Below the pieces are notes generated by a model. The model saw only the letters and a list, made by a program, of their open reading frames with translations. It searched no databases and was not told where the DNA came from. This document shows, piece by piece, positions 27,896-49,590 of a stretch of DNA of 64,000 nucleotides (positions within the stretch are counted from its first letter, which is position 1; the number at the start of each line of letters is the position of its first letter). This stretch comes from Planktothrix tepida. GTDB lineage: Bacteria; Cyanobacteriota; Cyanobacteriia; Cyanobacteriales; Microcoleaceae. The stretch lies in the NCBI RefSeq assembly GCF_904830955.1, contig NZ_LR882970.1, one strand, 5' to 3'. The position numbers were made by a program, and so were the translations under genes.

Positions 27896-28066
27896 CTTTT
27901 GTTTTTTAAAAGATTGTCAGGAAATCTTGATACATTATTGAAAATTACTTGCAAATAGTTGACGGCAGCATGGGGGTTCTGGTATATTTAGAAAATACCG
28001 CTCAAGGGGTTATTGTGTCTATTTGCCAAAATAGAGGCTAGAACTACTATTCTTTCGTAAAATATC
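27896..28066 (+). repeat. Copy A of a ~170-bp repeated element containing a sigma70-like promoter (TTGACG 27959-27964, N17, TATATT 27983-27988) reading toward + (antisense to the DUF39 gene)
   Basis: Manual alignment with the reverse complement of 49418-49590, about 80% identity over the whole length. Confidence 0.75.
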
Positions 28067-28237
28067 TGGATTTCCTGACTCAATTTCTGCCTTACGAGCT
28101 ATCAATTTTGGGGGTAAATCCTTAAAGGACTAAGAGGGGTATTGACAAAGTTGCCAATTTATGCAATTAGACAGGAAGGGAAGAGGTGATTTTAAAATAA
28201 CTGGGTGTTTCCGTCTCTAACTCTAATTAAGTCAGAC

Positions 28238-29413
28238 TTAATCTAAACTAATTTGAGAACCCCAAATATTTTGAGGAAGAAATGATCGATCTAAGGGAAT
28301 AGAAGCAACGGGTTCTGTGAGGGTAAAGGTTCCTGATTCAATCCATTTTTTTAACTCTTGGGCAATTTCACGAGAACGGGAAATACTCGCTACAGGTGCA
28401 GTTCTGACCATTTTTCCCTCAATAGAAATTTTGCCTTTTTTCAGTTGACTATAGGAAACTAAACCAAAGGTGGGACGAACCCGTCGAGGGATGGCAAAAT
28501 CCACTACGGGTGCAACAATATCTTGATCAGAAACTGCACAACGAGCAATCACATCTTCATTCAAAACGGGTAAAGGAATCCCCACACCTAACATTAATGA
28601 AGGGCCATAATTTTTAAAATAGCAACCCCTAACCCAATAAGGATTCATTTGTTTTGCATCTCCAATTAACGCTAACGTTGCAGCAGGGCCGATGGGGGTG
28701 CGATTGTCTAGGCGTTTTTGCAGGGGAAAATGTTGGGTTCCTTCCCAAGTAATATAGCCAATTCCGCCTCCTAAAAAAATCCGAGTCCCAATTCCAATTA
28801 CTTGTAAATCAGGATCATTAATTAAGGGAGAAATTGCACCCGGATTAGAATAAACTGCATTTCCTAAATAGGGTTGGAGGGGGCCTAAATAAGTATAAAG
28901 GGGGCGATCGCCACCATTAACTCCGACAATAAAATTTTGATAGAGATTGCGAGGATTGAATAAATAAAATTGGTTAATGGTATCACGGGTAATTGTAGTT
29001 TCAAAAGAACTCCGGGGATAACAATCAGAAACCACTCCTGATGCTCTGAGATGCACCGATTTTCCCGCAATTAAATCTTCAATCACATGACCCCCCCCTT
29101 GTTCATTGCCCTCTTCCCCATCTTCCATCATTTGACTCGCGCCCAGATATAAATCAACGGAACCAAATCCACTATAGGCAAGAACCCCATTTAACCAACA
29201 GGTTTTAATATTAATCGGGGGATCGGTATGACCTAAATTAATCACCGCCCCAGAGGCTTCCATCGGTTCAAAAGTTCCTGTGGTAATGACATCAACTTCT
29301 TGAGCAATTTGGGGAATAGTATCGGGGGTGACTTTGGCTTTCAATTCCTCCACAGTCCAAACAACAGCACGATTCTGAAGAATTTTATCGTTAATTTCAG
29401 CAATAGTTTTCAT
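28238..29413 (-). CDS. DUF39/COG1900-family protein (homologous to the methanogen homocysteine-biosynthesis protein)
   Basis: 391 aa; overall resemblance to the DUF39 family. Recalled from memory, not verified. Confidence 0.4.
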   Translation of the reverse strand: MKTIAEINDKILQNRAVVWTVEELKAKVTPDTIPQIAQEVDVITTGTFEPMEASGAVINLGHTDPPINIKTCWLNGVLAYSGFGSVDLYLGASQMMEDGEEGNEQGGGHVIEDLIAGKSVHLRASGVVSDCYPRSSFETTITRDTINQFYLFNPRNLYQNFIVGVNGGDRPLYTYLGPLQPYLGNAVYSNPGAISPLINDPDLQVIGIGTRIFLGGGIGYITWEGTQHFPLQKRLDNRTPIGPAATLALIGDAKQMNPYWVRGCYFKNYGPSLMLGVGIPLPVLNEDVIARCAVSDQDIVAPVVDFAIPRRVRPTFGLVSYSQLKKGKISIEGKMVRTAPVASISRSREIAQELKKWIESGTFTLTEPVASIPLDRSFLPQNIWGSQISLD

Positions 29414-29473
29414 TAAATTTTGACACCCCTTTAATTCTATTGTTTATGTTTCGTCGTTTTCAATTGTCGGAAA

Positions 29474-30520
29474 TTATTGTTTCCAGTGATCCAGAATATC
29501 TCGAATTAGGATTTCTTGCACTAAAACTTGTCCCACAACCGTTAACGGTAAGGCTAAAAGTAAACCCAGAAAGCCAAAAAAGGTAAGAAAAAAGCCTTGG
29601 GAGAGTAACGTAATTGCAGGTAAGAGGGAAACTTGTTGCGCCATAAGATAGGGCATTAAAAAATTGCTTTCCGCTTGTTGAATCAGAAAATATAAAATAA
29701 AAACAAACCCGGCTTTCCAAGGATCTTCTAATAAAGCAATCGCCATCGGAGGAATCACACTCAAAGTCGGCCCAATATTGGGAATTAAGTTGAGCAATCC
29801 TGCTAATATGGCATTGGCAAAGGCTAACGGAACTTGTAAGACTAAAAGCCCTGCTAAACTACAAACCGCCACAACACTCATATCAATTAAAGCTCCAACA
29901 ACCCATAGTCCTAACGCTATTTCACATTGATCTAAAATCCCATTCAGGCGTTGACGGTAAAAGGAAGGGATGAGTTGAATAAATGCTCTGCGATAAGCTA
30001 CAGGATCAGCTAATAGCATGATTGTTAAAACTAGAATTAATAAAAAGCCGAGAAGTCCTCCTAATGTATTTCCCACGAAAGCCCCAACGCCTCCTATTAA
30101 AGGATTTCCGATGCGTTGTAACTGTTGAATCAGGGCATTAATTTGTAAATCGACTTGAAATAAATTTTGCCAAAATTCCCCTGGAAGTTGGGTTTCTAGG
30201 TAATTAATCCAAAGATTTAGCCGTTGTAATCCTCGTTCTAACCCTCTAGGAACCCGTGTAGCGAGTTCTTGTAATTGGTCAAATAAAGGCGGAACAACTA
30301 ACAAGAATATCGTTATAAACCCTAAAATTAGTAAACTAATTGAGAAGAATACCGCCCAAGAGCGTTTAATTCCAAAGCGTTGTATCCATCGAGCTAATTT
30401 ATTCAGGGCGGTTGCTAAAACAATCGCAGCAAAAACAAGTAATAAAGCTTGTCGAACTTGCCAAAGGATATAGATGGCACAGAGAATTGCGCTAAAACCG
30501 AACCATTGCCCTAGTGTCAC
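29474..30520 (-). CDS. AI-2E family (PerM/UPF0118) transporter
   Basis: 8-TM permease with the characteristic N-terminal and C-terminal pattern of PF01594. Confidence 0.6.
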   Translation of the reverse strand: MTLGQWFGFSAILCAIYILWQVRQALLLVFAAIVLATALNKLARWIQRFGIKRSWAVFFSISLLILGFITIFLLVVPPLFDQLQELATRVPRGLERGLQRLNLWINYLETQLPGEFWQNLFQVDLQINALIQQLQRIGNPLIGGVGAFVGNTLGGLLGFLLILVLTIMLLADPVAYRRAFIQLIPSFYRQRLNGILDQCEIALGLWVVGALIDMSVVAVCSLAGLLVLQVPLAFANAILAGLLNLIPNIGPTLSVIPPMAIALLEDPWKAGFVFILYFLIQQAESNFLMPYLMAQQVSLLPAITLLSQGFFLTFFGFLGLLLALPLTVVGQVLVQEILIRDILDHWKQ

Positions 30521-30682
30521 AGGATAAACACCGATGAGATGAAATTCTGATCTATTATGATCGATTTAAGTCTTAAGAATATCAATTATCTGTTAAAATT
30601 AAGCGATCGCTCATTCTGAAGGGAACAGTCAGTAAATTTTCAATCCGTTTCCCGACGTTCCCTTTTGCGATTCTTTACCCTT

Positions 30683-30889
30683 CTATTCCGGTTGTTGAGA
30701 ATGTTGTCTCATCCGCCAACTAAATAAAACGGCTAGAATAACCGAAGGTAAGCAAACCGCAATAGCTGCAAGAATTGAGGATTCAGGAATCGAAAGCAAG
30801 GGGCCAACGAATTTGATCACAACCGATAGTCCCAGGGACAAAAGTAGAACTTTGAGTAGAAATGTTATTTTGTTATCCATACAGGGCAT
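30683..30889 (-). CDS. Small two-TM membrane protein (68 aa), hypothetical
   Basis: ORF only. Confidence 0.25.
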   Translation of the reverse strand: MPCMDNKITFLLKVLLLSLGLSVVIKFVGPLLSIPESSILAAIAVCLPSVILAVLFSWRMRQHSQQPE

Positions 30890-31061
30890 TTTATAAAGGG
30901 TGAGGGTGCGATGGCGTAGCCGCCGCCTGTCGGCATCGCAACTAGGCAGAAACCCGGTTTCTCAACAAAAAATCTGGATAGAATTACTAAAATCTGGGTG
31001 AGAAACTCGGTGTCTTGGGTTTTGTGCGATCGCCAATTCATAGTTTACTTGAGAAATACCA

Positions 31062-32384
31062 ATGCAAAACCAAGATCCAAAATTATTAGAAAAAATTCGT
31101 CAACAGTTTGACTCAGCCCCCTATCCTAGAATTCCCTTAGAACACTCCCCTAAAACCGATTATGAGTTGCTATTTATCCACAATTTAGTCACGCCTTATT
31201 ATTTAAAATATCAGAAAGTTATTAATACAGAAGGAAAAGTTATTTTAGATGCAGGCTGTGGAAGCGGATATAAATCCTTAATGTTAGCAGAAGCCAATCC
31301 AGGGGCTAAAATTGTAGGGATTGATATTTCTGAACAATCTATTGAACTGGCTCGTCAACGTTTAAAATTTCATGGGTTTGATAATACAGAATTTTATGTT
31401 TTACCGATAGAAAACTTACCAGAAATTGGGTATGAGTTTGATTATATTAATGCAGATGAGGTGCTTTATCTATGCCCAAATTTATTCAATGCAATGCAAG
31501 GGATCAAACAAGTTTTAAAACCCCAAGGTATTATTCGGGCTAATGTACATAGTTTATATCAAAGGGTCGGTTATTTTAGGGCGCAATCTCTGTTTAAACT
31601 CATGGGAGTCATGGATGAAACTTCTCAAGAATTGAAGGTTGAGATCGCTAGAGAAACAATAGAATCCATCAAAGATGAAGTGGTACTCAAGACACAAACT
31701 TGGAATAGTCCAGATTATAAAAATGACGAATGGTTGCTGGTTAATTATTTACTTCAAGGGGATAAAGGCTATACAATCCCAGAGGTTTTTGCGGTTTTGA
31801 AGGCAACTGATTTACAATTGATCAGTATGGTAAAATGGCGACAATGGCAGTTACTAGATTTATTTAAAGATCCTGATAACTTACCTGCGTTTCTAGCCTT
31901 GAGTTTATCCGAAATTTCTATCGAGGAACAGCTACATTTATTTGAGTTAATTAACCCCGTGCATCGGTTATTAGATTTTTGGTGTGGTCATTGTGAGCAA
32001 GAATTGATTCTCCCGGTGTCTGAATGGGCTGAAGTTGATTGGCAAACGGCACGGGTTGATTTACATCCTCAACTCAGAACGACTCAAGCTAAAGCAGACT
32101 TAATTGAATGTATTCAGACCCATAGACCTTATGAAATTAGCCAATATGTGAAGTTACCCACTCGCATACCCATCACCCTTGAGAGTAGTCGGGCAGCCTG
32201 TTTACTGCCGTTATGGGATGGAAAACAGACGGTGATCTCCCTGGCAGAACGGTGGCAACAAATCTATCCTCTTGATCCCATTACCCTAGAACCCATTACT
32301 GTCCAGAGGGCACTGCAACAGATCAAAGAAGTCCTCATCACCCTGGATGCCTTTCTGTATGTGCTTCTGGAGCATTCCGGGTGA
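31062..32384 (+). CDS. Class I SAM-dependent methyltransferase with C-terminal extension
   Basis: Motif I VILDAGCGSGYKS; motif post-I IVGIDIS. Confidence 0.65.
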   Translation: MQNQDPKLLEKIRQQFDSAPYPRIPLEHSPKTDYELLFIHNLVTPYYLKYQKVINTEGKVILDAGCGSGYKSLMLAEANPGAKIVGIDISEQSIELARQRLKFHGFDNTEFYVLPIENLPEIGYEFDYINADEVLYLCPNLFNAMQGIKQVLKPQGIIRANVHSLYQRVGYFRAQSLFKLMGVMDETSQELKVEIARETIESIKDEVVLKTQTWNSPDYKNDEWLLVNYLLQGDKGYTIPEVFAVLKATDLQLISMVKWRQWQLLDLFKDPDNLPAFLALSLSEISIEEQLHLFELINPVHRLLDFWCGHCEQELILPVSEWAEVDWQTARVDLHPQLRTTQAKADLIECIQTHRPYEISQYVKLPTRIPITLESSRAACLLPLWDGKQTVISLAERWQQIYPLDPITLEPITVQRALQQIKEVLITLDAFLYVLLEHSG

Positions 32385-32487
32385 AATAAAAAAAATTTTT
32401 GTAGGGGTGATATGAAAGGTTGAGAAAGTGGGTAAGTTAGAACTACCAGATAAAAAGTTAAACATCCCCCCAAGAGGAGAAAAACCT

Positions 32488-33015
32488 ATGAAGACCGAAT
32501 TTAAAGCGAAATTCCTGCAATACGTTGCTAATAGAAAAAAAGAAGAAGGTTTCACCTTAATTGAATTGTTAGTTGTTATTATCATTATCGGTATTCTGGC
32601 TGCGATCGCTCTGCCTTCCTTCCTCAACCAAGCTAACAAAGCCAAACAGTCTGAAGGAAAACAATATCTTTCTTCCATTAACAAAGGTCAACAAGCTTAC
32701 TACGCTGAAAATACACAGTTTGGAGCAACCATTTCAGAATTAGGGATTGGTTTAAAAACCCAAACCTCTAACTTTGTCTATGACAATGGAGTTGCTACTG
32801 GTGGTACTGGAGCATCATCCTCAGCTTCCCCTGCTTCCTCTGCAATGAAAGCTTATGCGGCAGGTGTCGGCTTAAGTGGAACAGGCGAAGCAAAAACAAC
32901 CTCTACTGTTCTCTGTGAAGAAGTTGTAGCTGCAAACTGGCAGGATCCTGTTAGTATTGGATTCTCTACTACTGGGCCAATTTGTGGAACCAACCAAAGT
33001 GCAGTAACGAAATAA
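32488..33015 (+). CDS. pilA: Type IV pilin (PilA-like major pilin) precursor. The ORF could also start at 32428, but the SD favours 32488.
   Basis: Cyanobacterial-type long leader ending …KKEEG|FTLIELLVVIIIIGILAAIALPSF (prepilin peptidase site G|F, Glu+5). Ser/Thr/Gly-rich C-terminal region. AGGAG SD upstream of 32488. Confidence 0.8.
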   Translation: MKTEFKAKFLQYVANRKKEEGFTLIELLVVIIIIGILAAIALPSFLNQANKAKQSEGKQYLSSINKGQQAYYAENTQFGATISELGIGLKTQTSNFVYDNGVATGGTGASSSASPASSAMKAYAAGVGLSGTGEAKTTSTVLCEEVVAANWQDPVSIGFSTTGPICGTNQSAVTK

Positions 33016-33064
33016 TAGCTTAAGTCTAACCAGTCTTTCTGGTTCAGAATATGAATCATTGAGA

Positions 33065-33095
33065 GCGGGTAGTATGGAAAATACTGCCCGCTTTC
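33065..33095 (+). terminator. Intrinsic terminator after pilA
   Basis: gcgggtagtat-ggaaa-atactgcccgc hairpin (11 bp, one G-U) followed by tttc. Confidence 0.55.
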
Positions 33096-33119
33096 ATGCA
33101 ATAAATTTGCACAAATTAT

Positions 33120-35369
33120 TTGAGTTCTATGAAATCTAATCTTAGTCTAAGTGTTTATTCTGATTGGGAACAAAAAGCCAAGCAGTATTGGGAAGAAAAA
33201 AACTATACCCAATCGGCAAAATTGTATGAAGCTGCGATTGAAAGAGAACCTGATGTTAAATCTCTATACTGGTATCTAGGCTTAATGTTATTATTGCAAG
33301 GACAAGAAGTGGAAGCTCAAACCACTTGGTTCTTGGCAATGACCGAAGGTGAACCGGATCAAGTTGAGCAGTGGACGCAAGAATTAATCCAAGTTTTAGA
33401 AACTGAAGCTGAACGACAAAGAATTACCCTCGGAGACTGTACAACAGCCTGGATTATTCGCCAGCATATTCGAGAAATTAATCCCACAGATATTAATAAT
33501 CTTTTACATTTAGTGGGCTTATCAACCTTACTGAACACTTATTCCGATGAGGTGCTAGTTGAATTCGGAATTTTAGAGTTATTTCAATCTAATGTTATTG
33601 TTCCAGAAGACGTTAATAATGACTTATTACTTGAAGTTTTAAATAATGTTTTAGACCAAGCTCCTCAACAGCCTTTATCTTATGAATTAGTAGAAACCAC
33701 TGTTCCTTATCTGTCTGATATTCAGTCCTATATGGGAGTCTTAGTTCCCGTTATCTATCAATTAGCGTATTCTCGAAGTCAACATCCTTTAGCAATTAAA
33801 TTCACTGAACAAGGCTTAAAATTCGATCCCAAGCATCCTGAATTATGGCGATGTTTATCGACGTTGTATCAAGATATCGGGGAATATGCAAAGGGGATAG
33901 AAGTTGCAAAACATTGTTATTCTGTAATGGATAATTTTCCTGATCAAGTCTATGCAACTTTTTTATTGCTTCGGGGGTTAATGAGTGCTGGTGGACGCTG
34001 GACAGAATTCTGCACAACGATAGAAAATTATCAGTTGATGCTCAATCGTTTATTGGAAGAAAAGCCAACCTTAGCTTATGATTTGGCTGTGCGCTCTTTT
34101 TCAACAACATTTTTCTTTCCCTATTATCAAGATCAACCCCGCGAAAACTACTCGCTGCGTCGTCAGGTTTCTGAATTTATCCAGTCTAATATAGAAACTC
34201 AAAATACAGAAACAGTCAAGTATTGTCGGGGTTGGAAATCTCGTTCAAAAACAAATATTTTAGCTGAAAAACGCTTAAATATTGGTTATGTTTCCCACTG
34301 TTTAAGAAATCATTCGGTCGGTTGGTTAGCGAGGGGTTTATTTCAACATCATGACCATGATAAGTTTAAAATTCATAGTTATTTATTCGCAGCACAAAAG
34401 AATCATAATGAGGTACAAGATTGGTACGTTAGTAAAAGTGATAAAGCCCATGGATTAGGGTTAGATGGAAAAGAAGTGGCTAAAGTTATTTATGATGACG
34501 AGATTGATATTTTAGTAGATCTCGACAGTTTAACCTTGACATCAACCTGTGAAACCTTAGCTCTTAAACCAGCACCCATACAAGTTACTTGGTTAGGTTG
34601 GGATGCTTCATCGGTTCCCAGTGTCGATTATTTTATGGCTGACCCTTACGTTTTACCTGAAGATGCTCAAGACTATTATCAGGAAACAATTTGGCGTTTA
34701 CCTAATACTTATTTAGCAGTAGATGGGTTTGAAATCGCAATTCCTAGCCTGCGACGGGACGAATTAGGGGTTTCTAATGATGCCATTCTGTATTTTACGG
34801 CTCAACGAGGCTATAAATATAACCCTGATACGGCTAAATTACAGCTTCAAATTTTGAAAGCTGTTCCTAATAGTTATTTTTTGATTAAAGGGATGGCTGA
34901 TCAAGAATCTTTGAAAACTTTTTATGCTGAAATTGCTGAATCTGTTGGGGTCGATTGCGATCGCTTAAAATTATTACCTTTATCCCCAACAGAAGCGAGT
35001 CATCGAGCTAATTTAGCGATCGCAGATGTAGTTCTTGATACCTATCCCTATAATGGTGCTACAACCACGATGGAAACCCTGTGGATGGGTGTTCCAATGG
35101 TGACAAAGGTTGGGCAACAATTCGCCGCCCGTAATAGTTATACGATGATGATTAATGCCGGAATTACAGAAGGTATTGCTTGGACAGATGAAGAATATGT
35201 GGAATGGGGAATTAAGCTAGGAACTGATGAAAATTTACGGCAACAAGTTACTTGGAAATTAAGAAAAAATAGACAAACTGCCCCGTTATGGAATGCGGAA
35301 CAATTTACCCGTGAGATGGAGAATGCTTATCAACAAATGTGGCAGAGATATATTGAGGGTAAGAATTAA
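33120..35369 (+). CDS. TPR-repeat protein fused to a GT41 (O-GlcNAc-transferase/SPINDLY-like) glycosyltransferase domain
   Basis: N-terminal TPRs. C-terminal GT41 pattern (GYVSHCLRNHSVGWL…IQVTWLGWDASSVPSVDYFMADPYVLPED…LPNTYL…TYPYNGATTTMETLWMGVPMVT). Confidence 0.7.
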   Translation: MSSMKSNLSLSVYSDWEQKAKQYWEEKNYTQSAKLYEAAIEREPDVKSLYWYLGLMLLLQGQEVEAQTTWFLAMTEGEPDQVEQWTQELIQVLETEAERQRITLGDCTTAWIIRQHIREINPTDINNLLHLVGLSTLLNTYSDEVLVEFGILELFQSNVIVPEDVNNDLLLEVLNNVLDQAPQQPLSYELVETTVPYLSDIQSYMGVLVPVIYQLAYSRSQHPLAIKFTEQGLKFDPKHPELWRCLSTLYQDIGEYAKGIEVAKHCYSVMDNFPDQVYATFLLLRGLMSAGGRWTEFCTTIENYQLMLNRLLEEKPTLAYDLAVRSFSTTFFFPYYQDQPRENYSLRRQVSEFIQSNIETQNTETVKYCRGWKSRSKTNILAEKRLNIGYVSHCLRNHSVGWLARGLFQHHDHDKFKIHSYLFAAQKNHNEVQDWYVSKSDKAHGLGLDGKEVAKVIYDDEIDILVDLDSLTLTSTCETLALKPAPIQVTWLGWDASSVPSVDYFMADPYVLPEDAQDYYQETIWRLPNTYLAVDGFEIAIPSLRRDELGVSNDAILYFTAQRGYKYNPDTAKLQLQILKAVPNSYFLIKGMADQESLKTFYAEIAESVGVDCDRLKLLPLSPTEASHRANLAIADVVLDTYPYNGATTTMETLWMGVPMVTKVGQQFAARNSYTMMINAGITEGIAWTDEEYVEWGIKLGTDENLRQQVTWKLRKNRQTAPLWNAEQFTREMENAYQQMWQRYIEGKN

Positions 35370-35502
35370 AAATTAAGCCCTTCAAGTTAGCTAGCCATGG
35401 TCAAGGATTCTCCCTTGCTTATTGGTAGTGGGGGTATCCGTAGAACTGAGCATTCAATTTCAGATCACAAACTAAGTGAGTAAAATTTTAAATTCTATCT
35501 TT

Positions 35503-37896: not shown

Positions 37897-37912
37897 GACT
37901 TTAATCCTTCAA

Positions 37913-40900: not shown

Positions 40901-42064
40901 CGGCCATAATTTCATTTCTAAATCATACAATTTCCAAGCTCTGCGCCAAGTTGCCCAGCCCCAAATATGATTGTACCGAGAAAAGTAGTAACTAGCCCCT
41001 GGATGATTGTGTCCAAATTGAAAATTATTACCTGAGATTGCCATAATTAGTTCATCATGGCGATATCGTTCTAATAATTCTTCACAAAATCGGAAAAATG
41101 TCACATCGGGTAAACAATCATCTTCAAGAATAATGGCTTCTTCAACAGTATTAAAAACCCAATTTAAGCCACTGGAAACTCGATGACGACAGCCTAAGTT
41201 AATATCAGAATAGTGGGTTAAAACTTCACAATCCCAATCCACTTGATTAATAATTGCTCTGGTGGCTGCACATTTTTGAAATTCACCGTTTACATTCCGT
41301 CGCGGGCCATCAGCAATGACCAGGAGTTTTTCGGGTTTCACCTGACGAATTGCATTAAACACTTGCTGCGTTGTGTCCGGTCTGTTGAAAATCATTAAAC
41401 AAACCGGAGTTGTTAATTGGGGTTTTTGATCAAGTTCAGATAAATTTTTAAGCGGATAACTTACCCCAGGTTTTCTAGCTTCTGCATAAATAGATTCATG
41501 CTTTCTCGTTTCTAAATCTAAACCGGGTTCAAACTCCCTGAGCTTAACATTTTCAAAACCAACATTAGCAATAATTATGGGTAAGTTTTCGTTATCAAAC
41601 AGATAACGATGATGACCATCCATATAAGCGATATAATTAATAAAATCTATTTTAGAATGATAGTGATAGGCAGGGGTATAAAGACAATACTTTTCAGGAT
41701 CGAATTGATCGGGTTTCTCATAAGATTCTATATAAATTCTGGCATCGGGGACAGCTATTTTAAAAATACCTCCGGGTTTTAAAACGCGATAGCATTCTGA
41801 AAGCAAGTTCAGCATCGGATCAGGAAACGAAAAGTGTTCTAATAGATGAGAGGAGTAAATTTCTTCTACGCAGTTATCAGGAAAGGGTAGAGGTTTTGAC
41901 AAATCCATACATAAATCACTATTGGGATCTAAATCCATTGTGAGCCACCCTTCCATTCTCTTCTGGGAAGAACCTAACTCAATTTTGATGGGTTTTCCCC
42001 TTTCTAAAATCAACTGAATTAAATGTTGATTTTTGATGGCAATCTGTGATAAAAAGTCATTCAT
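37913..42064 (-). CDS. 1383-aa multidomain enzyme: class I SAM-MTase + GT-A-like glycosyltransferase + TPR repeats + CmcI-family MTase + TylF/MycF-family O-MTase + a further class I MTase
   Basis: Successive domain signatures read from the translation (VLKPGGIFKIAVPD; LMIFNRPD…ILEDDCLPD; TPR block; IIEIGSKSGGSALWF; FVECGVEKGGSTALLAAVL…DSFQGLP; IEIGSFAGSSLFL…MFHDY). Confidence 0.6.
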   Translation of the reverse strand: MNDFLSQIAIKNQHLIQLILERGKPIKIELGSSQKRMEGWLTMDLDPNSDLCMDLSKPLPFPDNCVEEIYSSHLLEHFSFPDPMLNLLSECYRVLKPGGIFKIAVPDARIYIESYEKPDQFDPEKYCLYTPAYHYHSKIDFINYIAYMDGHHRYLFDNENLPIIIANVGFENVKLREFEPGLDLETRKHESIYAEARKPGVSYPLKNLSELDQKPQLTTPVCLMIFNRPDTTQQVFNAIRQVKPEKLLVIADGPRRNVNGEFQKCAATRAIINQVDWDCEVLTHYSDINLGCRHRVSSGLNWVFNTVEEAIILEDDCLPDVTFFRFCEELLERYRHDELIMAISGNNFQFGHNHPGASYYFSRYNHIWGWATWRRAWKLYDLEMKLWPSIRDTGRLQQILENPEVIAYWSRIFQDAYEGFNTWDYAWTFACWANQGLTILPHVNLVSNIGFRADATHTKGESQLANLPTQPISFPLQHPTVVMRNRQADHWTEAIMFSSTVSPTQEKLNSEGIERLSQGIESLNKNENLEALNLFKEVLEIAPEQSGVYYAKAIAEARLGQLFESLDSLKALLNLNPNHSQGQRLLEQLSTEAKQKIKAQIEKAISLFNQGQKVAALRCAEKNKEAGIFIPEMHYIRAVCLSAVGRYEEALAAAKQELENNPNHPEAQAQVQSLTQALIRPEKAKIPTHERPWNTALPYELMMSIQNALHNFSYKGVPLQKNPFDYSIYPVLLWKIKPQTIIEIGSKSGGSALWFGDLMNNFGIEGHVYSIDIVKVTQVSHPRVTFLEGDGSNLAETLSPKFIQSLPRPLLVIEDADHSFTTSKAVLDFFHAYLDQGEYIIVEDGIISDIVQDASYNSGPHQALKSFLSEHPQDYEIDGEYCDFFGYNLTWATNGFLKKQTLAKIRASIPQSIKSKSTNIKSQSLPPDYPEFQELLQIVSPYTGLSEERLYSLFSLAKKVCIDNIPGNFVECGVEKGGSTALLAAVLTRYSKQPRLLYAFDSFQGLPKPSEFDRYQGVSAESLGLTQGSCAAPESSVLNLCAKLGVSDVVRTVKGYFQDTLPQFRNSVGVIALLHMDGDWYESTKVILEQLFDRVVNDGFIQVDNYGHWEGCKKALHEFEEKNHLKFNLNPIDYTGVWLTTPDQFPLNPIIEPNLLNDFNQDDPVVYGIQSQMSKNERFQLYYVLRKLLPEFSQPLRFIEIGSFAGSSLFLTCKALNRLTSNLQGFAIDPGLHPQLKLVLQEVKQNVTHLQQFSHDAVIQLQLKFEQDSNFPPFIFVDGDHSYEGVKQDIINYYPLLKPGGIMMFHDYLPALNDENRSAILSHHGGNEPGIRQACQELMEDTYRCELIDIPLLYPTDPTQTQAYLPIIPGVFSTIRVYRKPIN

Positions 42065-42111
42065 TTTTTAATCCTCTTTATAAGTTTTAAACACAATCTC
42101 ACTATCATCAT

Positions 42112-43371
42112 TTAATTATCTTGAGTAGGAGAGGGTTTGGGATTCATGACTTGAAAACATCCTTTTCCTAAAATAGATTGTTTCTGGCTGGGAACTCCCT
42201 GGCTTTCTAAAATATCAAATTTCCTAAAAAACAAAGAGGTACAATTTTTATAAGTGTAGCTAGAAATAATCCCCCAGAAATCCAGACGTTTATAACCTTC
42301 ATTGGCTAATTTTTGAACAGAGGAGTCATAATTGTAATCATCGGTATTATCAAAGATAATTAAGCCCCTTTCTTTAATGTGATTTAAACTTATTTCCAAA
42401 CACCGATTTCGATTAGCTCCATCAACAATAATAACATCAAAGTAATCCGATGGAAAGGAAGAAATCATTTCTGCATATTCTTGTTCATCTTCTCGTAAAA
42501 AAATTTGAACATTTTTAGGCATTTTAGCCTTGATTTCTTCAAACCAATTGGCATCATTTTCAATAGAAATAACTTCTGAAACTCGTTGTGACCACCATAA
42601 GGTTGAGTTACCTGCTCCAAATTCAAAGACTTTAAAATCAGGCTTAACTTTATCTTCTAAAAATTCAATCGCTGGATAGGTATACCAGGGAAGGGGTTGA
42701 TTATCTTGAGTTACAGGTTTTCTTTGATATAGTGAATTCAACCATCCTGATGTCAGAAAATAATTAATTCCCGGAGGAAGATTAGCCGCAACTTCATACC
42801 AATTTAAAGATAGAATTAAACTATGAGCTACTGGAATTGAATACCCTTTTTCTACTAAGTCAGGATAATCTGACAATAGCTGTTTTCCTAATTCAGCAGA
42901 TTCAACAAATCTTTGAGCGTTAAAACATTGTTGGGTGAGTTGTAATTTAAAGTTTTTTTGTTGTTCATTAATTGTCGATAGAAATTCATATTTTTCTAAA
43001 TCAGTTACTTGCTCTAAGGTGACAATCGGAATAATATCTGACCATTCATTGAGTTGGCTTTTGTTGACGTTATTACCTAATATCTTATAATTTATTTTTA
43101 AAATGGAGTTAAACCATTCTTCAAAATTTTGGGAACTAACTAAACTAATATTAAGAGCATCTTCTAATTGTTCATTTCCCTCGATCATCAAGTTCATCAT
43201 TACACCTGATACATACAGGTCTGCTTCTTGACCAGGAAACTGATCATAGTCGATAAAAATAGATAAATTGCTTCTGTCAGGATGGTTGAGAAAGGCTTTG
43301 ATTATTGTTGTCAATTCTAACAAAAGCTCAGGCTCTGGTGATGCCCAGTTGAACAGAACCAAAAAATTCAT
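42112..43371 (-). CDS. Uncharacterised N-terminal domain (same family as the repeats in the GT4 protein) fused to a class I SAM-dependent methyltransferase
   Basis: N-terminal …LYVSGVMMNLMIEGNEQLEDAL…. C-terminal MTase motif I VFEFGAGNSTLWW and …IIVDGANRN…. Confidence 0.6.
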   Translation of the reverse strand: MNFLVLFNWASPEPELLLELTTIIKAFLNHPDRSNLSIFIDYDQFPGQEADLYVSGVMMNLMIEGNEQLEDALNISLVSSQNFEEWFNSILKINYKILGNNVNKSQLNEWSDIIPIVTLEQVTDLEKYEFLSTINEQQKNFKLQLTQQCFNAQRFVESAELGKQLLSDYPDLVEKGYSIPVAHSLILSLNWYEVAANLPPGINYFLTSGWLNSLYQRKPVTQDNQPLPWYTYPAIEFLEDKVKPDFKVFEFGAGNSTLWWSQRVSEVISIENDANWFEEIKAKMPKNVQIFLREDEQEYAEMISSFPSDYFDVIIVDGANRNRCLEISLNHIKERGLIIFDNTDDYNYDSSVQKLANEGYKRLDFWGIISSYTYKNCTSLFFRKFDILESQGVPSQKQSILGKGCFQVMNPKPSPTQDN

Positions 43372-43618
43372 AGACTCGGAGCCTTCTAGGGGATTATGGT
43401 TTTAGTATACCCTGTGGGTTTCAGAAAATGATCATTTTTGCTGTATTAATTTTTTGTAAGATATTATAGTTTAGATTAGTCAGTGTTTAAATCGCTTGTA
43501 TAATATTTGACTAGCTGATGATTTAACGAAATTAATCTGTTAAAATAGATCTGAAGTACAATTGATTTATTTTTTCATAGTTTAATCGTTAACCTATATC
43601 TTGACCAGATAATAAATC

Positions 43619-46600
43619 ATGAAAATTATAAACTTTTTAGATCTTTATTCCTCAATAGAAGAATCCCATGATTTAGTTAATAACTGGTCACTCTTATTTC
43701 CTGAGCTACAGTTTATTTTAAAACTGGGAGATCCTGAAAACAATATTTATCTTCCTCTATTGTTAAACTTAGCAGTTCGCAATTTAGAAAATCAGGAAAT
43801 TTATTGCCAAATCGGGGTAAATTATGTTAGTAGTTTAATGGGTGCGTTACTGAATAATCCTGACTCTATAGCTTATGTGGTCGATTCCTTCTATGAAAAA
43901 GATGAATCCCAAAGTTATGAATCTAGCGTTGAAATTTTAGATGCTTTAAATTTTAGTAATCAAGTATTTTTATGTGATCAAGAACCAGAAGAATTTTTAT
44001 TAGAACTAAGAGAAGTTGAATTTGAGAATCAAATCGGTGTTTGTTTCTACGATTGGAAAACTGATTATCGTTCTGTTCTGAATAGCTTATTATTGATTAA
44101 TTCTTTTTTATCTGATCAAGCATTAATTATTGTTAATGATGCAAATCATGCCAGTGTTCAGCAAGCTATATGGGATTTTATCGCAGCAACACCTGAATGT
44201 CAAGTTGAACTAGAACTATTACCTCAGACTGATGAACCACTCCTGTTTGAAGATAGGATTTTTATTATCAGTCGGGATATCAACAGAACTTTTAACTATC
44301 AAACAGTGGCTTTGCTAAACCATCGCCAACCTCAAGTCATTCAAAGAATTTCTCAGTTACATCAATTCGACAAATTATTAAATAAAATTTATCAGGAAGC
44401 TGTCGATTTTCATCAAAACGAAAAATTTAATGAAGCCGAAAACAAATATCAAGAATTTATTGATTTTAATCCAAATCATCTGGAAGCGTGGATGAATTTA
44501 GGAAAGTTATATTATCAAATCGAAAATTATCAAGCATCTCTGCACGCTAGTTACAAGTTAATAGCACTGACTCCTCAAAGGTTTGACGGATATTATCAAT
44601 TAGGTCAATGCTTTGAAAAATTGAATCAAGTTGAACAAGCGATCGCAGCCTACGAAAAAACAATCGCATTAAAACCTGATTATCTTGATGCCTATAATAA
44701 CTTAGGAAATCTCTTAACGCAACAAGGGCAATTTGCAGAAGCAGAAACAGTTTATCGTCAAGCAATAAAGATTAACCCTAATCATTTTGGTAGTTACTTG
44801 AATTTAGGCAATTTATTTTTATTGCAAAATCAATTTCAATTCGCTAAAGCAACCTATCAAAAAGGTTTAAGGATTATTCCAGATCAGCCTGATATTCTGC
44901 ATAACTTAGCTCTAACGGATGAAATAGAAAAAAATCCGATTCCTTATTATCGTAGTTTTGGCGATCGCTTGTATGAATTAGGCAATTATGAAGGAGCGAT
45001 CACAGAATATCAAAAAATCCTCAATTTGCAAGCGGGAGATGTTGATCTTTATGAAAAACTCAATCACTGTTACTGGCAACTCAACCAACCGAATGATGCC
45101 ATAGATATCTTGAAAATAGGAACAAAAATTTATCCTGATTTTGCCCCCCTTCATTTTACATTAATTATGAATCTTCTTTATCAAGGAAGAACAGAAGAAG
45201 CCGTTAAACAAGCGGAACTAGCATCAGAATACTTACCCAAAGATTATACCTTTACGTTGCTTAAACATTTAATTGTTCCGATGTTGTATCACTCCGTTGA
45301 GGAAATCAATAATTATCGTGAACGATTTAATCAAGGATTACAAAATTTAATTGCAACGACCGATTTAAATGATCCTGAAACCTTAGAACAATCGTTTTTA
45401 GGAATGGGACGATTTACCAATTTTTATTTAGGGTATCAAGCGAGAAATGTGGTTGAAGAACAACGCATTTATGGTCATTTTCTTTATCAAATAATGTCGA
45501 AGAAATATCCCCAGTGGGTTCAAACGCTAACTCTCCCTCCTGTAGAAGATAAAATAAGAGTTGGATATGTTTCCAGTTATTTACATTGTTATAGTGGTTC
45601 ACTCTGGTTAATCGGTTGGTTGCGCTATGCGAATCGTGATCAGTTTGAAATTTACGCTTATTATACGGGGAATTCTCCTGATCCTGTTACGGAAAAATTT
45701 AGACAATATAGTCATAAATTTTATCATATTCCTAATAATTTAGAAGCGGTTGCTGAACAAATTATTAAGGATCAACTGCATATTTTAGTCTATCCCGAAA
45801 TTGGCATGAACCCCCCAACAATGGAACTTGCAGCATTGCGTTTAGCACCTATTCAATGCACAGCTTGGGGTCATCCCGTCACATCAGGACTTCCAACCAT
45901 TGATTATTTCCTATCGAGTCAATTAATGGAACCGGAAAACGCACAGAAACATTATTCAGAAGCCTTAATTTTATTACCGAATATTGGGGTTGCTTATCCG
46001 AAACCTCAAGATATTCCACCGTTAGTTAAAACTCGATTAGACTATAATTTACCCGAAGATACGGTGATTTATTTATGTTGTCAAGCTCCCTTTAAATATC
46101 TTCCCCAATATGATTATATTTTACCGGAAATTGCGATCAAGGTTCCGAACGCTAAGTTTTTATTTTTCCGAGGAACATTACTCAATGATCGCTTAAATCA
46201 AGCTTTTTCTAACTATGGCTTAAATTATCAGGATTATTGTTTACATCGAAAAGTTGACGAACGCTTTGATTATTTAATGTTAAACCAACTTTCGGATGTG
46301 TTTTTAGATACCTTTACTTGGTCGGGAGGAAATACCTCTTTAGAAGCGATCGCTTGTTATTTACCTATTGTCACTTGTCCTGGGGAATTTATGCGAGGTC
46401 GTCATGCAGATAGTTTCCTAAAAATGATGGGTTTAACAGAAACTATTGCAAAAAATGAAGCAGAATATATTGAAATTGCGGTCAAATTAGGGTTAGATTC
46501 TATATGGCGTGAAACAATTTCTCAACAGATGGGTGAACGCCAAAATCTTCTATTTGATGATCAAGTTTGTGTGACTGCGCTAGAGGAATTTTATCAAGCT

Positions 46601-46624
46601 GTCACTAAAGCTAGACTTTCATAA
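43619..46624 (+). CDS. Second TPR + GT41 (OGT/SPINDLY-like) protein, 1001 aa, with N-terminal domain distantly resembling the same uncharacterised domain
   Basis: TPR block (aa ~260-520). GT41 C-terminal pattern (VGYVSSYLHCYSGSLWLIGWL…APIQCTAWGHPVTSGLPTIDYFLSS…). N-terminal …VNYVSSLMGALLNNPD…. Confidence 0.65.
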   Translation: MKIINFLDLYSSIEESHDLVNNWSLLFPELQFILKLGDPENNIYLPLLLNLAVRNLENQEIYCQIGVNYVSSLMGALLNNPDSIAYVVDSFYEKDESQSYESSVEILDALNFSNQVFLCDQEPEEFLLELREVEFENQIGVCFYDWKTDYRSVLNSLLLINSFLSDQALIIVNDANHASVQQAIWDFIAATPECQVELELLPQTDEPLLFEDRIFIISRDINRTFNYQTVALLNHRQPQVIQRISQLHQFDKLLNKIYQEAVDFHQNEKFNEAENKYQEFIDFNPNHLEAWMNLGKLYYQIENYQASLHASYKLIALTPQRFDGYYQLGQCFEKLNQVEQAIAAYEKTIALKPDYLDAYNNLGNLLTQQGQFAEAETVYRQAIKINPNHFGSYLNLGNLFLLQNQFQFAKATYQKGLRIIPDQPDILHNLALTDEIEKNPIPYYRSFGDRLYELGNYEGAITEYQKILNLQAGDVDLYEKLNHCYWQLNQPNDAIDILKIGTKIYPDFAPLHFTLIMNLLYQGRTEEAVKQAELASEYLPKDYTFTLLKHLIVPMLYHSVEEINNYRERFNQGLQNLIATTDLNDPETLEQSFLGMGRFTNFYLGYQARNVVEEQRIYGHFLYQIMSKKYPQWVQTLTLPPVEDKIRVGYVSSYLHCYSGSLWLIGWLRYANRDQFEIYAYYTGNSPDPVTEKFRQYSHKFYHIPNNLEAVAEQIIKDQLHILVYPEIGMNPPTMELAALRLAPIQCTAWGHPVTSGLPTIDYFLSSQLMEPENAQKHYSEALILLPNIGVAYPKPQDIPPLVKTRLDYNLPEDTVIYLCCQAPFKYLPQYDYILPEIAIKVPNAKFLFFRGTLLNDRLNQAFSNYGLNYQDYCLHRKVDERFDYLMLNQLSDVFLDTFTWSGGNTSLEAIACYLPIVTCPGEFMRGRHADSFLKMMGLTETIAKNEAEYIEIAVKLGLDSIWRETISQQMGERQNLLFDDQVCVTALEEFYQAVTKARLS

Positions 46625-46759
46625 AAAATTGGTGTTCTTTCTGAATTTCGTTGAATTTCATTATGGACTTGAGCGATTGTTAATTCCAACTGTCCTAAAC
46701 GTTCTAACTCAATTTCAATATGCGTCACCCGTTCCTGCACTTGACTGGCTGAACTGGAG

Positions 46760-47185
46760 TTATTTTTGATTTCCCTGTTTTAATTGAGTTAATAACTGTT
46801 GATAATCTTGTCGATCAGGATTTAATTTTATTAAATTATTTAAGGGTTCAATTGCTCCTTGAATGTTATTTTGTTCTAGTCTAACCTTCACTAAACCTTC
46901 TAAAGCAGTCGGGTTATTGGGTTCCCGTTTTAATACCGTTTCATAACCTTTTTCTTGCTTTTGTAATAAAGCACTTGCAGATTGTTCTTCTGTAGGTTGA
47001 GTGGGTTGAGGTTCGCGTTCAAAAACACCTTTAAAAACTTTGCCTAATCCAAAGATACTGGTTCCAAAAAAAGACACCATTGATAGCACAAGCACAATTT
47101 TTTGTATCTTCTTAGAGCGTTCCATTCGGCGCATACGCTCTGTCCCATATTGCCTTTCTAAGGATTCCTTCTCGACGGGATTCAT
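46760..47185 (-). CDS. Small membrane-anchored TPR-like protein, paralogous to the core of ORF 19161-20111
   Basis: Shared motif KGYETVLKREPNNPTALEGLVKVRLEQ; single TM. Confidence 0.45.
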   Translation of the reverse strand: MNPVEKESLERQYGTERMRRMERSKKIQKIVLVLSMVSFFGTSIFGLGKVFKGVFEREPQPTQPTEEQSASALLQKQEKGYETVLKREPNNPTALEGLVKVRLEQNNIQGAIEPLNNLIKLNPDRQDYQQLLTQLKQGNQK

Positions 47186-47257
47186 GGCTAATACCTTCCT
47201 CAGATTCTTGATTAGTTGGCTTGAATAGCACCTATTTTGAGAATACCCTGTTTGTTC

Positions 47258-48043
47258 TCAAAAGTGATCAGAACTAGATTCGGGTAATTCGCCAAACTGT
47301 TGACGGTAAAGGTTTAGCAACGTTTCTAACTCTTGGGAACGCTGTTGAGCTTCTTCGGCTTGACGTTGAGCTTCTTCGGCTTGACGTTGAGCTTCTTCGG
47401 CTTTTTGTGCAGATAATTCATCAACTGTGGGTAGAATTTCACCCTCTGAAGTAGCCCATCTTAGCCAGACCGTTTCGACGGTTTTATAACTTCCTGACCA
47501 TCGCACTAATGATAAGCCTAATTGTTGACTGACTAATCGATTAAATTGATCAGGAAAAATCGGTTCATAACTGCCATTAATTAACGTAAATCCTGCCCAA
47601 TCATCAGGATTAAAGGGATCATACCAAAAATATTCAGGAACCCGAACTTGATTTTGATAGATGAGTTTTTTGTTTGTTTTATCTTCTGGGGCGGTACTTT
47701 GTGATAATAATTCAATAATCACATCGGGGGCTTTTCCTTCTTCCCAAACCACCCAACTTTTTCGTTCTTTTTTGGGAACGCCTAATACGGCAAAAAAATC
47801 AGGACCTTTGAAGTCTTGGTTTCGCACTTGAGCTAAACTAAAATAGAGAAACATATTCCCCCCAACATAACCATCTTCTCGTTGTTCTAACCAAGGAATT
47901 AACTGATCAATCAGCAAATCCATTTGCAGTTTATGGCGTTGAGTTTCCATCGGGACTCCATCGTCACAAGGTAGTTCATCTTGCGTGGGCGGTAATATTA
48001 ACCCAAAGGGGATTGTTTCTTGTGGTGGTGACATAGCTCTCAA
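47258..48043 (-). CDS. Uma2-family (DUF820) putative endonuclease with C-terminal (AEEAQRQ)3 repeat
   Basis: Family-typical length and core. C-terminal 21-nt x3 tandem repeat at 47344-47406. Confidence 0.5.
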   Translation of the reverse strand: MRAMSPPQETIPFGLILPPTQDELPCDDGVPMETQRHKLQMDLLIDQLIPWLEQREDGYVGGNMFLYFSLAQVRNQDFKGPDFFAVLGVPKKERKSWVVWEEGKAPDVIIELLSQSTAPEDKTNKKLIYQNQVRVPEYFWYDPFNPDDWAGFTLINGSYEPIFPDQFNRLVSQQLGLSLVRWSGSYKTVETVWLRWATSEGEILPTVDELSAQKAEEAQRQAEEAQRQAEEAQQRSQELETLLNLYRQQFGELPESSSDHF

Positions 48044-48133
48044 TTAATCTATTGATTAATGATTTTAGAGACATTATATCATAGCAATCTACCATAATGG
48101 TAAATGGAGTAACCATTCAAGTTACAACACAGA

Positions 48134-49213
48134 TTATAAAACCCTACAATTCTTGATTTTTTCTAGGGTGGCTTTCATTAATTCTGTTGTTTGACCGGAT
48201 ACGTTAAAAACTAACGCTTCTCGATAAATTCTTTGGGCGAAATGGCTGTTTAAATTAGCAGCACCACTGGAGACTGTTATCGCAGCGTGGGCGCAACGCA
48301 CGGCTAATTCTATCGCCCAAGCGCGGAGTTTATATTTTTCTGAGGGATTAAGTGTTTGAGGATGATTGTGAGCCGAAAATATTTGAGAGCGACATTGATT
48401 GAGTTCTTGGTTTAAAGAATTAAAGGCATCTTGAATAACGGAAAAATTTGTTTTTTGAAAGGCTGTTTCTACAATATCTAATCCGGCTCTTGCACAGCCT
48501 AATGCTAAAAAACTAGCTTGTAGAACTTTGGCTTTATCATTCTCTTGCATCCAGCCAACGGGATGAATAGAAACGACTTTTTCTGTTGGTAAAAACCATT
48601 GGGTAAAGGTGGCTGTTACGGTATTAGTGGAAGTCATGCCGCAAAGGGATAGGGGAGGACTTAATGCTATCGTACTTTCTCCTATTTTTTGTTCGCAAAA
48701 GGGGACTAACCCCCAAACAGATTGACCATCAGGTAATATTGCAGCAACTACAAATTCTTCAAAAATTTCCCATCCTGTTATCCAAGGAACAAAACCATTA
48801 AGTTGGTATCCCCCCGTTACAGGAATAGCAATAATTGAGGGATTTCCTAACCGTCTTAAGTGGGAGAATCCTACACCAATTTTAACAGTTCCATAGCTCA
48901 TTTTGGGTAAATAATCTGCTTGTAATTGAGCATTAGAGCTTTGAATTAACATCCCAGCAACACTTTGATGTTGAGTTTGCAAAAAAGCTAAGGCACCTGA
49001 ATAACGGGCGATTAATTCTTGAAATTTAAAAAAGGTTTCTGCATCGAGTTGTCGTCCTCCCCAACCCTGGGGAATTCTTAATCCTAAAACCCCTAATTCT
49101 CCTAATCCGTTAAAGGCTTCATGAAGGGATTTTGAACAGCGATCAATTTGATTCGCATGGGGGTAAATCTTTTGTTTTAAATAGGATTCTGTTTGTTGTA
49201 GCAGTTCAGACAC
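48134..49213 (-). CDS. Acyl-CoA dehydrogenase-family protein
   Basis: ACAD middle-domain motif GYQLNGFVPWITGW and the N-terminal helical domain. Confidence 0.6.
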   Translation of the reverse strand: MSELLQQTESYLKQKIYPHANQIDRCSKSLHEAFNGLGELGVLGLRIPQGWGGRQLDAETFFKFQELIARYSGALAFLQTQHQSVAGMLIQSSNAQLQADYLPKMSYGTVKIGVGFSHLRRLGNPSIIAIPVTGGYQLNGFVPWITGWEIFEEFVVAAILPDGQSVWGLVPFCEQKIGESTIALSPPLSLCGMTSTNTVTATFTQWFLPTEKVVSIHPVGWMQENDKAKVLQASFLALGCARAGLDIVETAFQKTNFSVIQDAFNSLNQELNQCRSQIFSAHNHPQTLNPSEKYKLRAWAIELAVRCAHAAITVSSGAANLNSHFAQRIYREALVFNVSGQTTELMKATLEKIKNCRVL

Positions 49214-49417
49214 AATATATTGAGTTTAGGGTAAAATTATAACGGTTTTCAATCTAGTGAACAGTTCGAGGTGGAAACCGGGTTTTTGGGAAAAAGCCCA
49301 TACCTTGTTTTTCAATGCACAAATTTTGCTTTTTGTCAATCCCCCTGTTTCTCAGGCGATCATTTTTGTTTGTCCAAAATTCGAGCATCGCAGGGTAGGA
49401 ATTGGCAGCGAAACTCA

Positions 49418-49590
49418 AAAGATTTTACGAAAGAATCATGGTTTCAGACTTAATTTTGGGCTATAGACACAATAAACCCTTGGAGGGTGTTTTTCACACT
49501 ATACCAGAACCGCGATCATCTCGTCAACTTTTTGAGAAATATTTTTAATAAAATATCAGGATTCCCTGACAATCTTTTAAAAAACAAAAG
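49418..49590 (-). repeat. Copy B (inverted) of the ~170-bp promoter-bearing repeat: -35 TTGACG (rc of 49522-49527), -10 TATAGT (rc of 49498-49503). It is oriented toward the acyl-CoA dehydrogenase-like gene.
   Basis: Manual alignment with 27896-28066. Confidence 0.75.

Follow-up and report, generated by a model that had tools for sequence, protein, structure and literature searches.

Two inverted repeats in the Planktothrix tepida genome belong to an old family of putative promoter/leader cassettes

Correia repeat enclosed elements (CREE) of Neisseria are bounded by terminal inverted repeats, flanked by TA target duplications and present in about 100 or more near-identical copies per genome. 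In fimS of Escherichia coli and in the invertons of Bacteroides, a promoter segment of ~120–150 bp lies between inverted repeats of ~20–30 nt. Qrr1-5 and the cyanobacterial Yfr2-5 are multi-copy families of small RNAs (sRNAs) with a conserved promoter and a conserved 5' seed. We analysed two repeats, hereafter copies A and B, that stand in inverted orientation in a 64-kb stretch of the genome of the cyanobacterium Planktothrix tepida (the window: 64,000 nt of contig NZ_LR882970.1, assembly GCF_904830955.1, to which all unprefixed coordinates refer). Both belong to a dispersed family of non-coding sequences, hereafter the cassette, which shares some traits with each of these systems. We favour, with a probability of roughly 60%, the reading that the two repeats are old copies of a lineage-specific, ~310-bp non-coding promoter/leader cassette that has been reused before unrelated genes.

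Another described system is that of the putative mobile promoters (PMPs), homologous non-coding sequences that stand before non-homologous genes, in two to a few copies per genome, and that are reported to be most enriched in cyanobacteria (Matus-Garcia, Nijveen & van Passel 2012, Nucleic Acids Res 40:10032, PMC3488235). PMPs were defined as stretches of 50–100 nt with at least 80% identity, located within 150 nt of a start codon (PMC3488235). Operationally, the cassettes would fit a PMP family. They too lie upstream of non-homologous genes and form a small family common to species of one genus, and copies A and B are identical at 45 of 50 positions in 27896–27945, hence above 80% over 50 nt. 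In contrast with PMPs, the cassette is ~310 bp long, its 3' end is 30–390 nt away from the start codon, it has a fixed internal architecture and it also occurs as orphans. Its paralogues are 62–79% identical overall, though with blocks of at least 50 nt at 80% or more. Full-text searches of the available library with three conserved cassette sequences found no paper. We regard the family as clearly delimited, of old age, under constraint and associated with gas-vesicle genes among others, and not as a new principle.

Two members of a dispersed cassette family

The original prediction had described a ~170-bp inverted repeat at ~80% identity. Pairwise alignment of 27896–28066 with the reverse complement of 49418–49590 gave 133 identical columns out of 173 (76.9%). 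The similarity was thereby borne out, but the length was not, the unit extending over ~306–312 bp in the window copies. A family profile (nhmmer) spanned both copies end to end (model positions 3–310; coordinates in Table 1), and identity over the full unit was 70.6% (69% in a global alignment). When either repeat region was compared by blastn with the whole window, the sole match was the partner (74.7% over 265 nt, E=6.7e-37). The 64 kb thus hold exactly two copies, copy A on the plus strand and copy B on the minus strand, inverted relative to each other and 21.1 kb apart, and their similarity is far above chance. The longest exact run that they have in common is 26 nt (27896–27921 / 49590–49565), and no other exact run exceeds 15 nt. 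A weak additional similarity extends 3' of the unit, out to ~28232 in copy A and ~49248 in copy B.

In Planktothrix and its relatives, we counted 19 full-length cassettes of 295–312 bp at about nine independent loci, in at least 10 genomes or metagenome-assembled genomes (MAGs). All 14 copies found first were aligned end to end by the family profile, each of them within this same length range. Scanning one genome per species with the core pattern CAAGGGNTTATTGTGTCTAT gave 13 matches, namely nine full-length cassettes, three chance matches and one doubtful case. The nine cassettes came from Planktothrix MAGs, P. paucivesiculata, two 'Oscillatoriales' MAGs and Lyngbya sp. CCY1209. A metagenome scan contributed three further cassettes, and protein-guided look-ups added the P. 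pseudagardhii orthologue of copy A (L023:4248-4551) and a gvpK-associated copy in P. serta (L029). By the core pattern there are one to three cassettes per genome, these counts being lower bounds. The doubtful case, found in a Xenococcaceae MAG (L017:4477-4544), has the exact core 20-mer downstream of a promoter-like TTGACG...TACTAT, with a gene for a branched-chain amino-acid permease 150 nt further on. Once the core was masked, its flanking similarity was not significant. We did not count it as a member; it is probably a chance match, but may be a distant relative that retains the kernel only. Our prior estimate, which was not computed by a tool, had been of ~4 chance matches for a 19-base pattern in 596 Gb.

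The genes that follow the cassette in the same orientation are unrelated to one another. They encode an acyl-CoA dehydrogenase (ACAD)-like protein, GvpK followed by GvpL/F, a MalK-type ABC ATPase, a phosphoribosyltransferase, a DUF1963 protein (with a likely hydrogenase protease further downstream) and GcpE/IspG. Three or four copies are without a co-oriented downstream gene; for copy A, L008 and L011, the next gene is convergent. Which genes are preceded by a cassette depends on the lineage. At the gvpK locus, P. serta, P. paucivesiculata, UBA8402 and CG2_30_40_61 have the cassette, and P. pseudagardhii and P. agardhii/rubescens lack it. Among the DUF39 loci compared, including those of P. 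serta and P. agardhii, only the tepida/pseudagardhii lineage has it.

The gvpK locus itself presented two peculiarities. In P. agardhii/rubescens (L027/L028, LR812490.1), gvpK, gvpF/L and a nitroreductase gene form a tandem repeated at least three times and followed by an insertion sequence (IS; DDE_Tnp_1), and these gvpK copies have no cassette. An 8.4-kb contig binned as 'Candidatus Obscuribacterales' (L006, DATNRE010000010.1) carries a Planktothrix-type gvpK (96% amino-acid identity) together with a cassette, and it is probably mis-binned.

Architecture, age and constraint

The order of elements within the cassette is fixed. At the 5' end, a box TATGTTAAgTTTTTCTAAT is followed by an A/T-rich stretch ending in GATTGTCAGGAAATCTTGATATTT, which constitutes the left arm of an internal inverted repeat. 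Then comes the putative promoter, made of CTCAAATAGTTGACG, 15 nt that include a conserved GGGGTTC, TGn and TAnnnT, with identical spacing in 18 of the 19 copies. In both window copies, 10 of 12 positions match the consensus, with an 18-nt spacer and a TG before the −10, in agreement with the near-consensus promoter originally noticed there. The 20-nt core CAAGGGnTTATTGTGTCTAT lies 15 nt beyond the promoter (14 nt in the two copy-A orthologues), that is, from about +10 to about +30 relative to the predicted start. It is nearly invariant and was exact in six of the seven copies that had been found independently of the core pattern. Further downstream stand the blocks CAAAAT..GGCTAAAACCCTGATT..TCGT.AAATAT, the right arm ..GATTTCCTGAC, a block CGATGCACGA.TTTT and a variable stretch. 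The cassette ends in an imperfect palindrome, cTTGACAAAA....AATTTRTGC (CTTGACAAA...TTTRTGC; also TTGACAAA...TTTGTGC), past which paralogues diverge.

The internal inverted repeat surrounds the promoter, with the GTCAGGAAAT motif upstream and its inverted copy downstream; in at least eight copies the arms are 17–30 nt long and 80–90% identical. The right arm has degenerated in the ACAD-locus cassettes, including the partner arm in copy B, and also in L015. Conserved sequence continues beyond both arms, for about 55 nt past the left one and about 90 nt past the right one. The motif TTGTCA(G/A)GA occurs three times per cassette, at about −70 in forward orientation, at about +85 inverted, and at about +170 inverted within the terminal palindrome. 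The only sizeable length differences are deletions of ~10–15 nt in the variable stretch ahead of the terminal box, seen in L010, L015 and L020. Deletions of this size remove roughly one turn of the helix, so that the motifs on either side would stay in phase.

Cassettes cluster by locus and not by genome. Identity is 89–99% at the gvpK locus, 90% at the IMPase locus and 70–76% at the ACAD locus, and 62–79% between loci. This indicated that the spread is old, predating the split of these species, and that the cassettes have been inherited vertically since. Between species, gvpK-locus cassettes are 89–92% identical without any indel, the third codon positions of gvpK being 81–87% identical. Substitutions between orthologues avoid the columns that are conserved among paralogues, with an odds ratio of 2.9 for copy A between P. 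tepida and P. pseudagardhii (Fisher p=0.009) and of 4–8 for the ACAD copies (Fisher p 1e-5 to 8e-13). Because substitutions avoid family-conserved columns, we conclude that the cassette is under purifying selection.

Taken as a promoter/leader unit, the cassette would comprise a strong sigma-70-type extended −10 promoter and a leader, supplying transcription, and probably a shared regulation, to any gene located downstream. It would have been copied long ago to several intergenic sites, for which MITE-like transposition (MITE, miniature inverted-repeat transposable element) and illegitimate recombination are both possible. RNA polymerase is predicted to start ~7 nt past the −10, to cross ~170 nt of cassette and to proceed into the next sequence. 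Copy B would then act as promoter and 5' leader of the ACAD-like gene, and copy A may give rise to a non-coding RNA that enters the 3' end of the DUF39 gene in antisense, or it may be a tolerated leftover. Among the options initially proposed, a duplicated promoter–leader module is the best supported, given that the cassette is kept upstream of ACAD in P. serta and two relatives, precedes unrelated genes elsewhere and stands in copy A as a full-length orphan.

Several observations weigh against this reading. Promoter function is argued here from consensus matches and conservation. Copy A is weakly constrained, diverging about as fast as its intergenic flanks (89% identity to the P. pseudagardhii orthologue, as compared with 84–89% for the flanks and 97–99% for the flanking genes), which indicates that its constraint is modest and limited to the conserved blocks. 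Neither terminal inverted repeats nor evident target duplications nor a partner transposase were found in the window or with the family copies. Nor was a clean empty site found, L025 being without the whole intergenic region, L004 being too divergent and the DUF39 loci of P. serta and P. agardhii being non-syntenic. The sampling is also biased, since nine of the 19 copies were found by the exact core 20-mer and three by a pattern of left arm plus partial core, so that diverged copies are under-sampled. Last, a plain promoter does not account for ~310 bp conserved with fixed spacing and with blocks outside the promoter. Conservation on this scale makes an additional function likely, for instance in binding proteins, as a leader peptide or as an RNA.

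Conservation of ~310 bp at fixed spacing, blocks upstream of the promoter and the thrice-repeated motif together suggest that one or several proteins bind the cassette. A more elaborate scheme, which we hold to be quite unlikely, is that of a portable regulatory unit defining a lineage-specific regulon, wherein one dedicated protein would bind the three TTGTCA(G/A)GA copies and loop the DNA around the promoter. The strict spacing and the ~10–15-nt length differences of three copies would fit such looping. The gvpK/F/L, ACAD-like, ABC ATPase and ispG genes would share one signal by virtue of an acquired cassette, orphans such as copy A would make antisense or regulatory RNA under the same signal, and a translated leader open reading frame (ORF) of 6–8 codons could superimpose another level of control. 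Provided that the promoter is active, the cassette would be a clear natural example of regulatory rewiring through the copying of a whole promoter/leader unit, kept by selection across the divergence of Planktothrix. It would then precede genes of ecological relevance, among them those for gas vesicles in a genus that forms blooms, and would give Planktothrix genetics a native expression cassette of compact size. A set of co-regulated genes would also be predicted, as would a transcript antisense to the homocysteine-synthesis gene DUF39.

Transposition, inversion and RNA as alternative explanations

It had been proposed that the repeats are a MITE or an IS-end remnant with an outward promoter. 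They would then be a non-autonomous transposon with an outward or internal promoter, its copies being relics of past transposition and any regulatory effect incidental. Part of this proposal stood, in that the family is dispersed over unrelated intergenic sites with a uniform length and fairly sharp ends. Moreover, most cassettes contain an inverted repeat of 20–30 nt, their presence varies at orthologous loci, and the −35-like TTGACA at the extreme 3' end is comparable to the IS ends that form hybrid promoters. Uniqueness of the unit to the two window sites had been named as evidence against such an origin, and the cassette was in fact found at many other loci in related genomes. However, the inverted repeat lies inside the unit, conserved sequence extending beyond either arm, and the two ends of the cassette carry no terminal repeats and are unlike each other. 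No target-site duplication was evident in the flanks of 13 copies, although short ones could hide since the 5' edge is fuzzy over ~15–20 nt. The low copy number (a lower bound) and the clustering by locus argue against recent activity, the spread being old, and every cassette is full length under block-wise constraint, unlike decaying relics. Relatives of the cassette ends were not detected elsewhere in the window (blastn), and plasmid and phage collections gave no match to the cassette. A comparison with Correia elements leads to the same contrast. Both are small, non-coding, dispersed repeats with inverted repeats and built-in promoter elements, of a kind that can affect the expression of neighbours and create non-coding transcripts, but the cassette has its inverted repeat inside, shows no duplication, is found in one to three copies and is old and divergent. 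Altogether, we consider a transposon relic unlikely, while granting it some weight. The inverted orientation of copies A and B had also raised the idea of a recombination substrate that inverts the 21.5-kb segment from DUF39 to ACAD; as a variant, the pair would bracket this segment as a mobile island. Apart from their orientation and distance, only the 26-nt exact run speaks for it. The identity of only 70–77%, with all other exact runs at 15 nt or less, speaks against it. P. pseudagardhii, the sole relative compared at junction A, is collinear there (patatin–cassette–DUF39), and so are four relatives (P. serta, L002, L024 and L025) at junction B (AbrB–cassette–ACAD–Uma2–TPR). P. serta has copy B and no copy A at DUF39, showing that the pair does not travel together, and neither a GC step nor a compositional boundary occurs at the repeats. 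The inversion thus found no support in any relative compared, with low power, and we deem it hardly credible.

Inversion on a smaller scale was also considered, as the repeats at about −70 and +85 could be recombinase sites that flip a ~145-bp promoter segment and make expression phase-variable. Indeed, in most copies inverted repeats of 17–30 nt with 80–90% identity flank a promoter segment of ~120–145 bp, and, as with fimS and the Bacteroides invertons, the promoter is bracketed by arms and the same repeat is found at several loci of one genome. Yet the orientation of the promoter relative to the outer conserved parts is identical in 19 of 19 copies, none being flipped. The flipped junction had no match in the metagenome scan, as compared with three for the normal junction (a scan of low power). 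The degenerated right arms at the ACAD locus and in L015 point in the same direction, and the annotated neighbours of both window copies (patatin, tnpB relic, HcyBio, AI-2E, AbrB, ACAD and Uma2) are not recombinases. An inverton is therefore highly improbable. Another view is that the cassette is itself a gene, either a multi-copy sRNA with the 5' core as seed, of which the orphans would be the sRNA-only form, or a leader mini-ORF (M-S-I-x-Q/K-N-x-G-stop) that controls downstream expression. In its favour, the three or four copies without a co-oriented downstream gene retain an intact promoter and core, and conservation is highest at the 5' end of the predicted transcript. As in the Qrr and Yfr families, there are several paralogues per genome, a conserved promoter and transcript 5' end, and some copies without a following gene. 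In addition, 14 of 18 tabulated copies show AAGGGG, 5 nt, GTG and then an ORF of 6–8 codons, in which the Ile (ATH) and Asn (AAY) codons have undergone synonymous changes only. In contrast with those families, the cassette has no conserved structure, terminator or Rfam match and is mostly found directly upstream of a co-oriented gene. RNAalifold on 13 copies gave −0.22 kcal/mol with six pairs and no compensatory change, and the predicted transcripts folded no better than shuffles (z = +1.07 and −0.62). Rfam yielded nothing at gathering score over the whole window and chance-level hits only in permissive scans of copies A, B and L016, and no terminator was found in copy A. On these grounds (no Rfam match, consensus fold, covariation or notable fold z-score) a structured RNA was rejected. 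As for the mini-ORF, its stop codon is lost in L014, L015 and L018, and by alignment in L011, and in the P. pseudagardhii copy A it is cut to four codons (MSIC*). Conservation that reaches well upstream of the predicted transcription start is inexplicable by an RNA. We find the cassette as a gene in its own right distinctly unlikely, and the mini-ORF with its Shine–Dalgarno (SD)-like sequence would be a second, weaker lead.

A small protein encoded on the reverse strand (..IIRVLA.IL..RHNNPL..) was a further candidate. A minus-strand open stretch spans the core in all copies, several of which have an in-frame TAA or TGA in the promoter spacer. We rejected this protein of 36–104 codons, as its ends vary, its start codon is often missing and it has no Pfam hit.

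The two loci in the window

Table 1. Features of copies A and B and of their neighbours (window coordinates)
Feature	Coordinates	Strand	Evidence or remark
Copy A, full-length cassette; no co-oriented gene downstream	27861..28166	+	nhmmer model 3-309, E=6.7e-82
Copy A, left arm of internal inverted repeat (GTCAGGAAATCTTGATACATTA), upstream of −35	27916..27937	+	22 nt, 82% complementary, 120 nt between arms
Copy A, putative promoter TTGACG-18-TATATT, TGn before −10; predicted start ~27995	27959..27988	+	consensus scan 10/12 + TG
Copy A, core CAAGGGGTTATTGTGTCTAT, most conserved block of the family; SD-like AAGGGG, 5 nt, GTG	28003..28022	+	family alignments
Copy A, hypothetical mini-ORF GTG TCT ATT TGC CAA AAT AGA GGC TAG (MSICQNRG*)	28015..28041	+	
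Copy A, right arm of internal inverted repeat (TAAAATATCTGGATTTCCTGAC)	28058..28079	+	repeat search, family comparison
Copy A, terminal box TTGACAAAGTTGCCAATTTATGC, imperfect palindrome containing −35-like TTGACA	28142..28164	+	kept in all copies; paralogue alignment fades just past it
Weak 3' extension common to copy A, copy B, L001 and L011; abuts DUF39 stop codon	28167..28232	+	alignment; 38/72 columns identical A vs B, reached by 29/1000 shuffles
DUF39/HcyBio gene, convergent with copy A	28238..29413	-	Pfam HcyBio, E=3e-150
tnpB C-terminal relic	27422..27715	-	Pfam Cas12f1-like TNB domain; copy A begins 146 nt away
Copy B, full-length cassette 100 nt upstream of ACAD-like gene	49314..49625	-	nhmmer model 3-310, E=1.8e-80
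Copy B, left arm motif (GTCAGGGAATCCTGATATTTTA), flagged as terminator-like hairpin	49549..49570	-	family arm comparison
Copy B, putative promoter TTGACG-18-TATAGT with TGn; predicted start ~49491	49498..49527	-	10/12 + TG
Copy B, core CAAGGGTTTATTGTGTCTAT	49463..49482	-	candidate mini-ORF 49470-49450 (MSIAQN*)
Copy B, terminal box TTGACAAAAAGCAAAATTTGTGC	49317..49339	-	family alignment
ACAD-like gene, presumed driven by copy B	48134..49213	-	Pfam Acyl-CoA_dh_N + Acyl-CoA_dh_1

The gene order around copy A is patatin, tnpB relic, cassette and convergent DUF39/HcyBio. This confirmed the neighbours first assigned to copy A, which is directed toward an ORF-free stretch and antisense to the 3' end of DUF39. 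The protein encoded by DUF39 is 100% identical to a P. tepida protein and near-identical to that of P. pseudagardhii; in P. serta and P. agardhii, the synteny downstream of DUF39 is not kept. The tnpB relic is adjacent, as had been noticed, at 146 nt from the start of the full-length copy A, and copy A lies on its 5'-truncated side. A 287-nt relic segment (27414–27701) is missing from the otherwise collinear P. pseudagardhii locus, which retains copy A. Since copy A occurs there without the relic, we rejected an association with tnpB, whether as an IS200/IS605 right end or as an omega-RNA. The relic segment (27414–27715) may be the remnant of a lineage-specific insertion, or it may have been deleted in P. 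pseudagardhii. As regards the annotation of the window, the two repeats would mark neither a mobile island nor an invertible segment, and the tnpB relic is unrelated to them.

The patatin–DUF39 interval also showed a sharp contrast between genes and spacer. Between the window (27702–28237) and L023:4177-4712, intergenic identity was only 84–89%, as compared with 99.4% for DUF39 coding sequence (98.5% at third codon positions) and 97.3% for patatin. This may reflect recombination or a hypervariable spacer.

Around copy B the gene order is AhpC, AbrB, cassette, ACAD, Uma2 and a TPR gene, the AhpC-type ORF being assigned through synteny with relatives. Copy B was confirmed to be directed into the ACAD-like gene, 100 nt upstream of its ORF. 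The cassette is also kept upstream of ACAD orthologues in P. serta (L001) and in two uncultured relatives (L002/L003 and L024), with conserved AhpC-AbrB-cassette-ACAD-Uma2 synteny. The ACAD-like protein is 87% identical to its P. serta orthologue. In L025, which has the same synteny and an ACAD 85% identical, the cassette is absent and only 11 nt separate the AbrB stop from the ACAD start (L025:2989-3001, to be compared with 49214–49659 in the window). The loss of the whole AbrB–ACAD intergenic region implies that the two genes are co-transcribed there.

Planktothrix and other Microcoleaceae have the ACAD-like protein in a stand-alone form; in many cyanobacteria, heterocystous ones included, it is fused to an N-terminal cyclase/kynurenine-formamidase domain (PF04199), giving ~600 aa. 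The palindrome AAACCSGGTTT occurs at 30950, 49275 and 49633 of the window (three observed vs 0.05 expected), and two of these sites flank copy B in inverted orientation. As terminal repeats of the cassette they were rejected, for they are missing from most other copies and form small insertions of their own. The palindrome looks like a separate small mobile hairpin, similar to repetitive extragenic palindromic (REP) elements, and pairs of it explain the ~116-nt extra insert between cassette and gvpK in L006 and L013 relative to L016 and L009.

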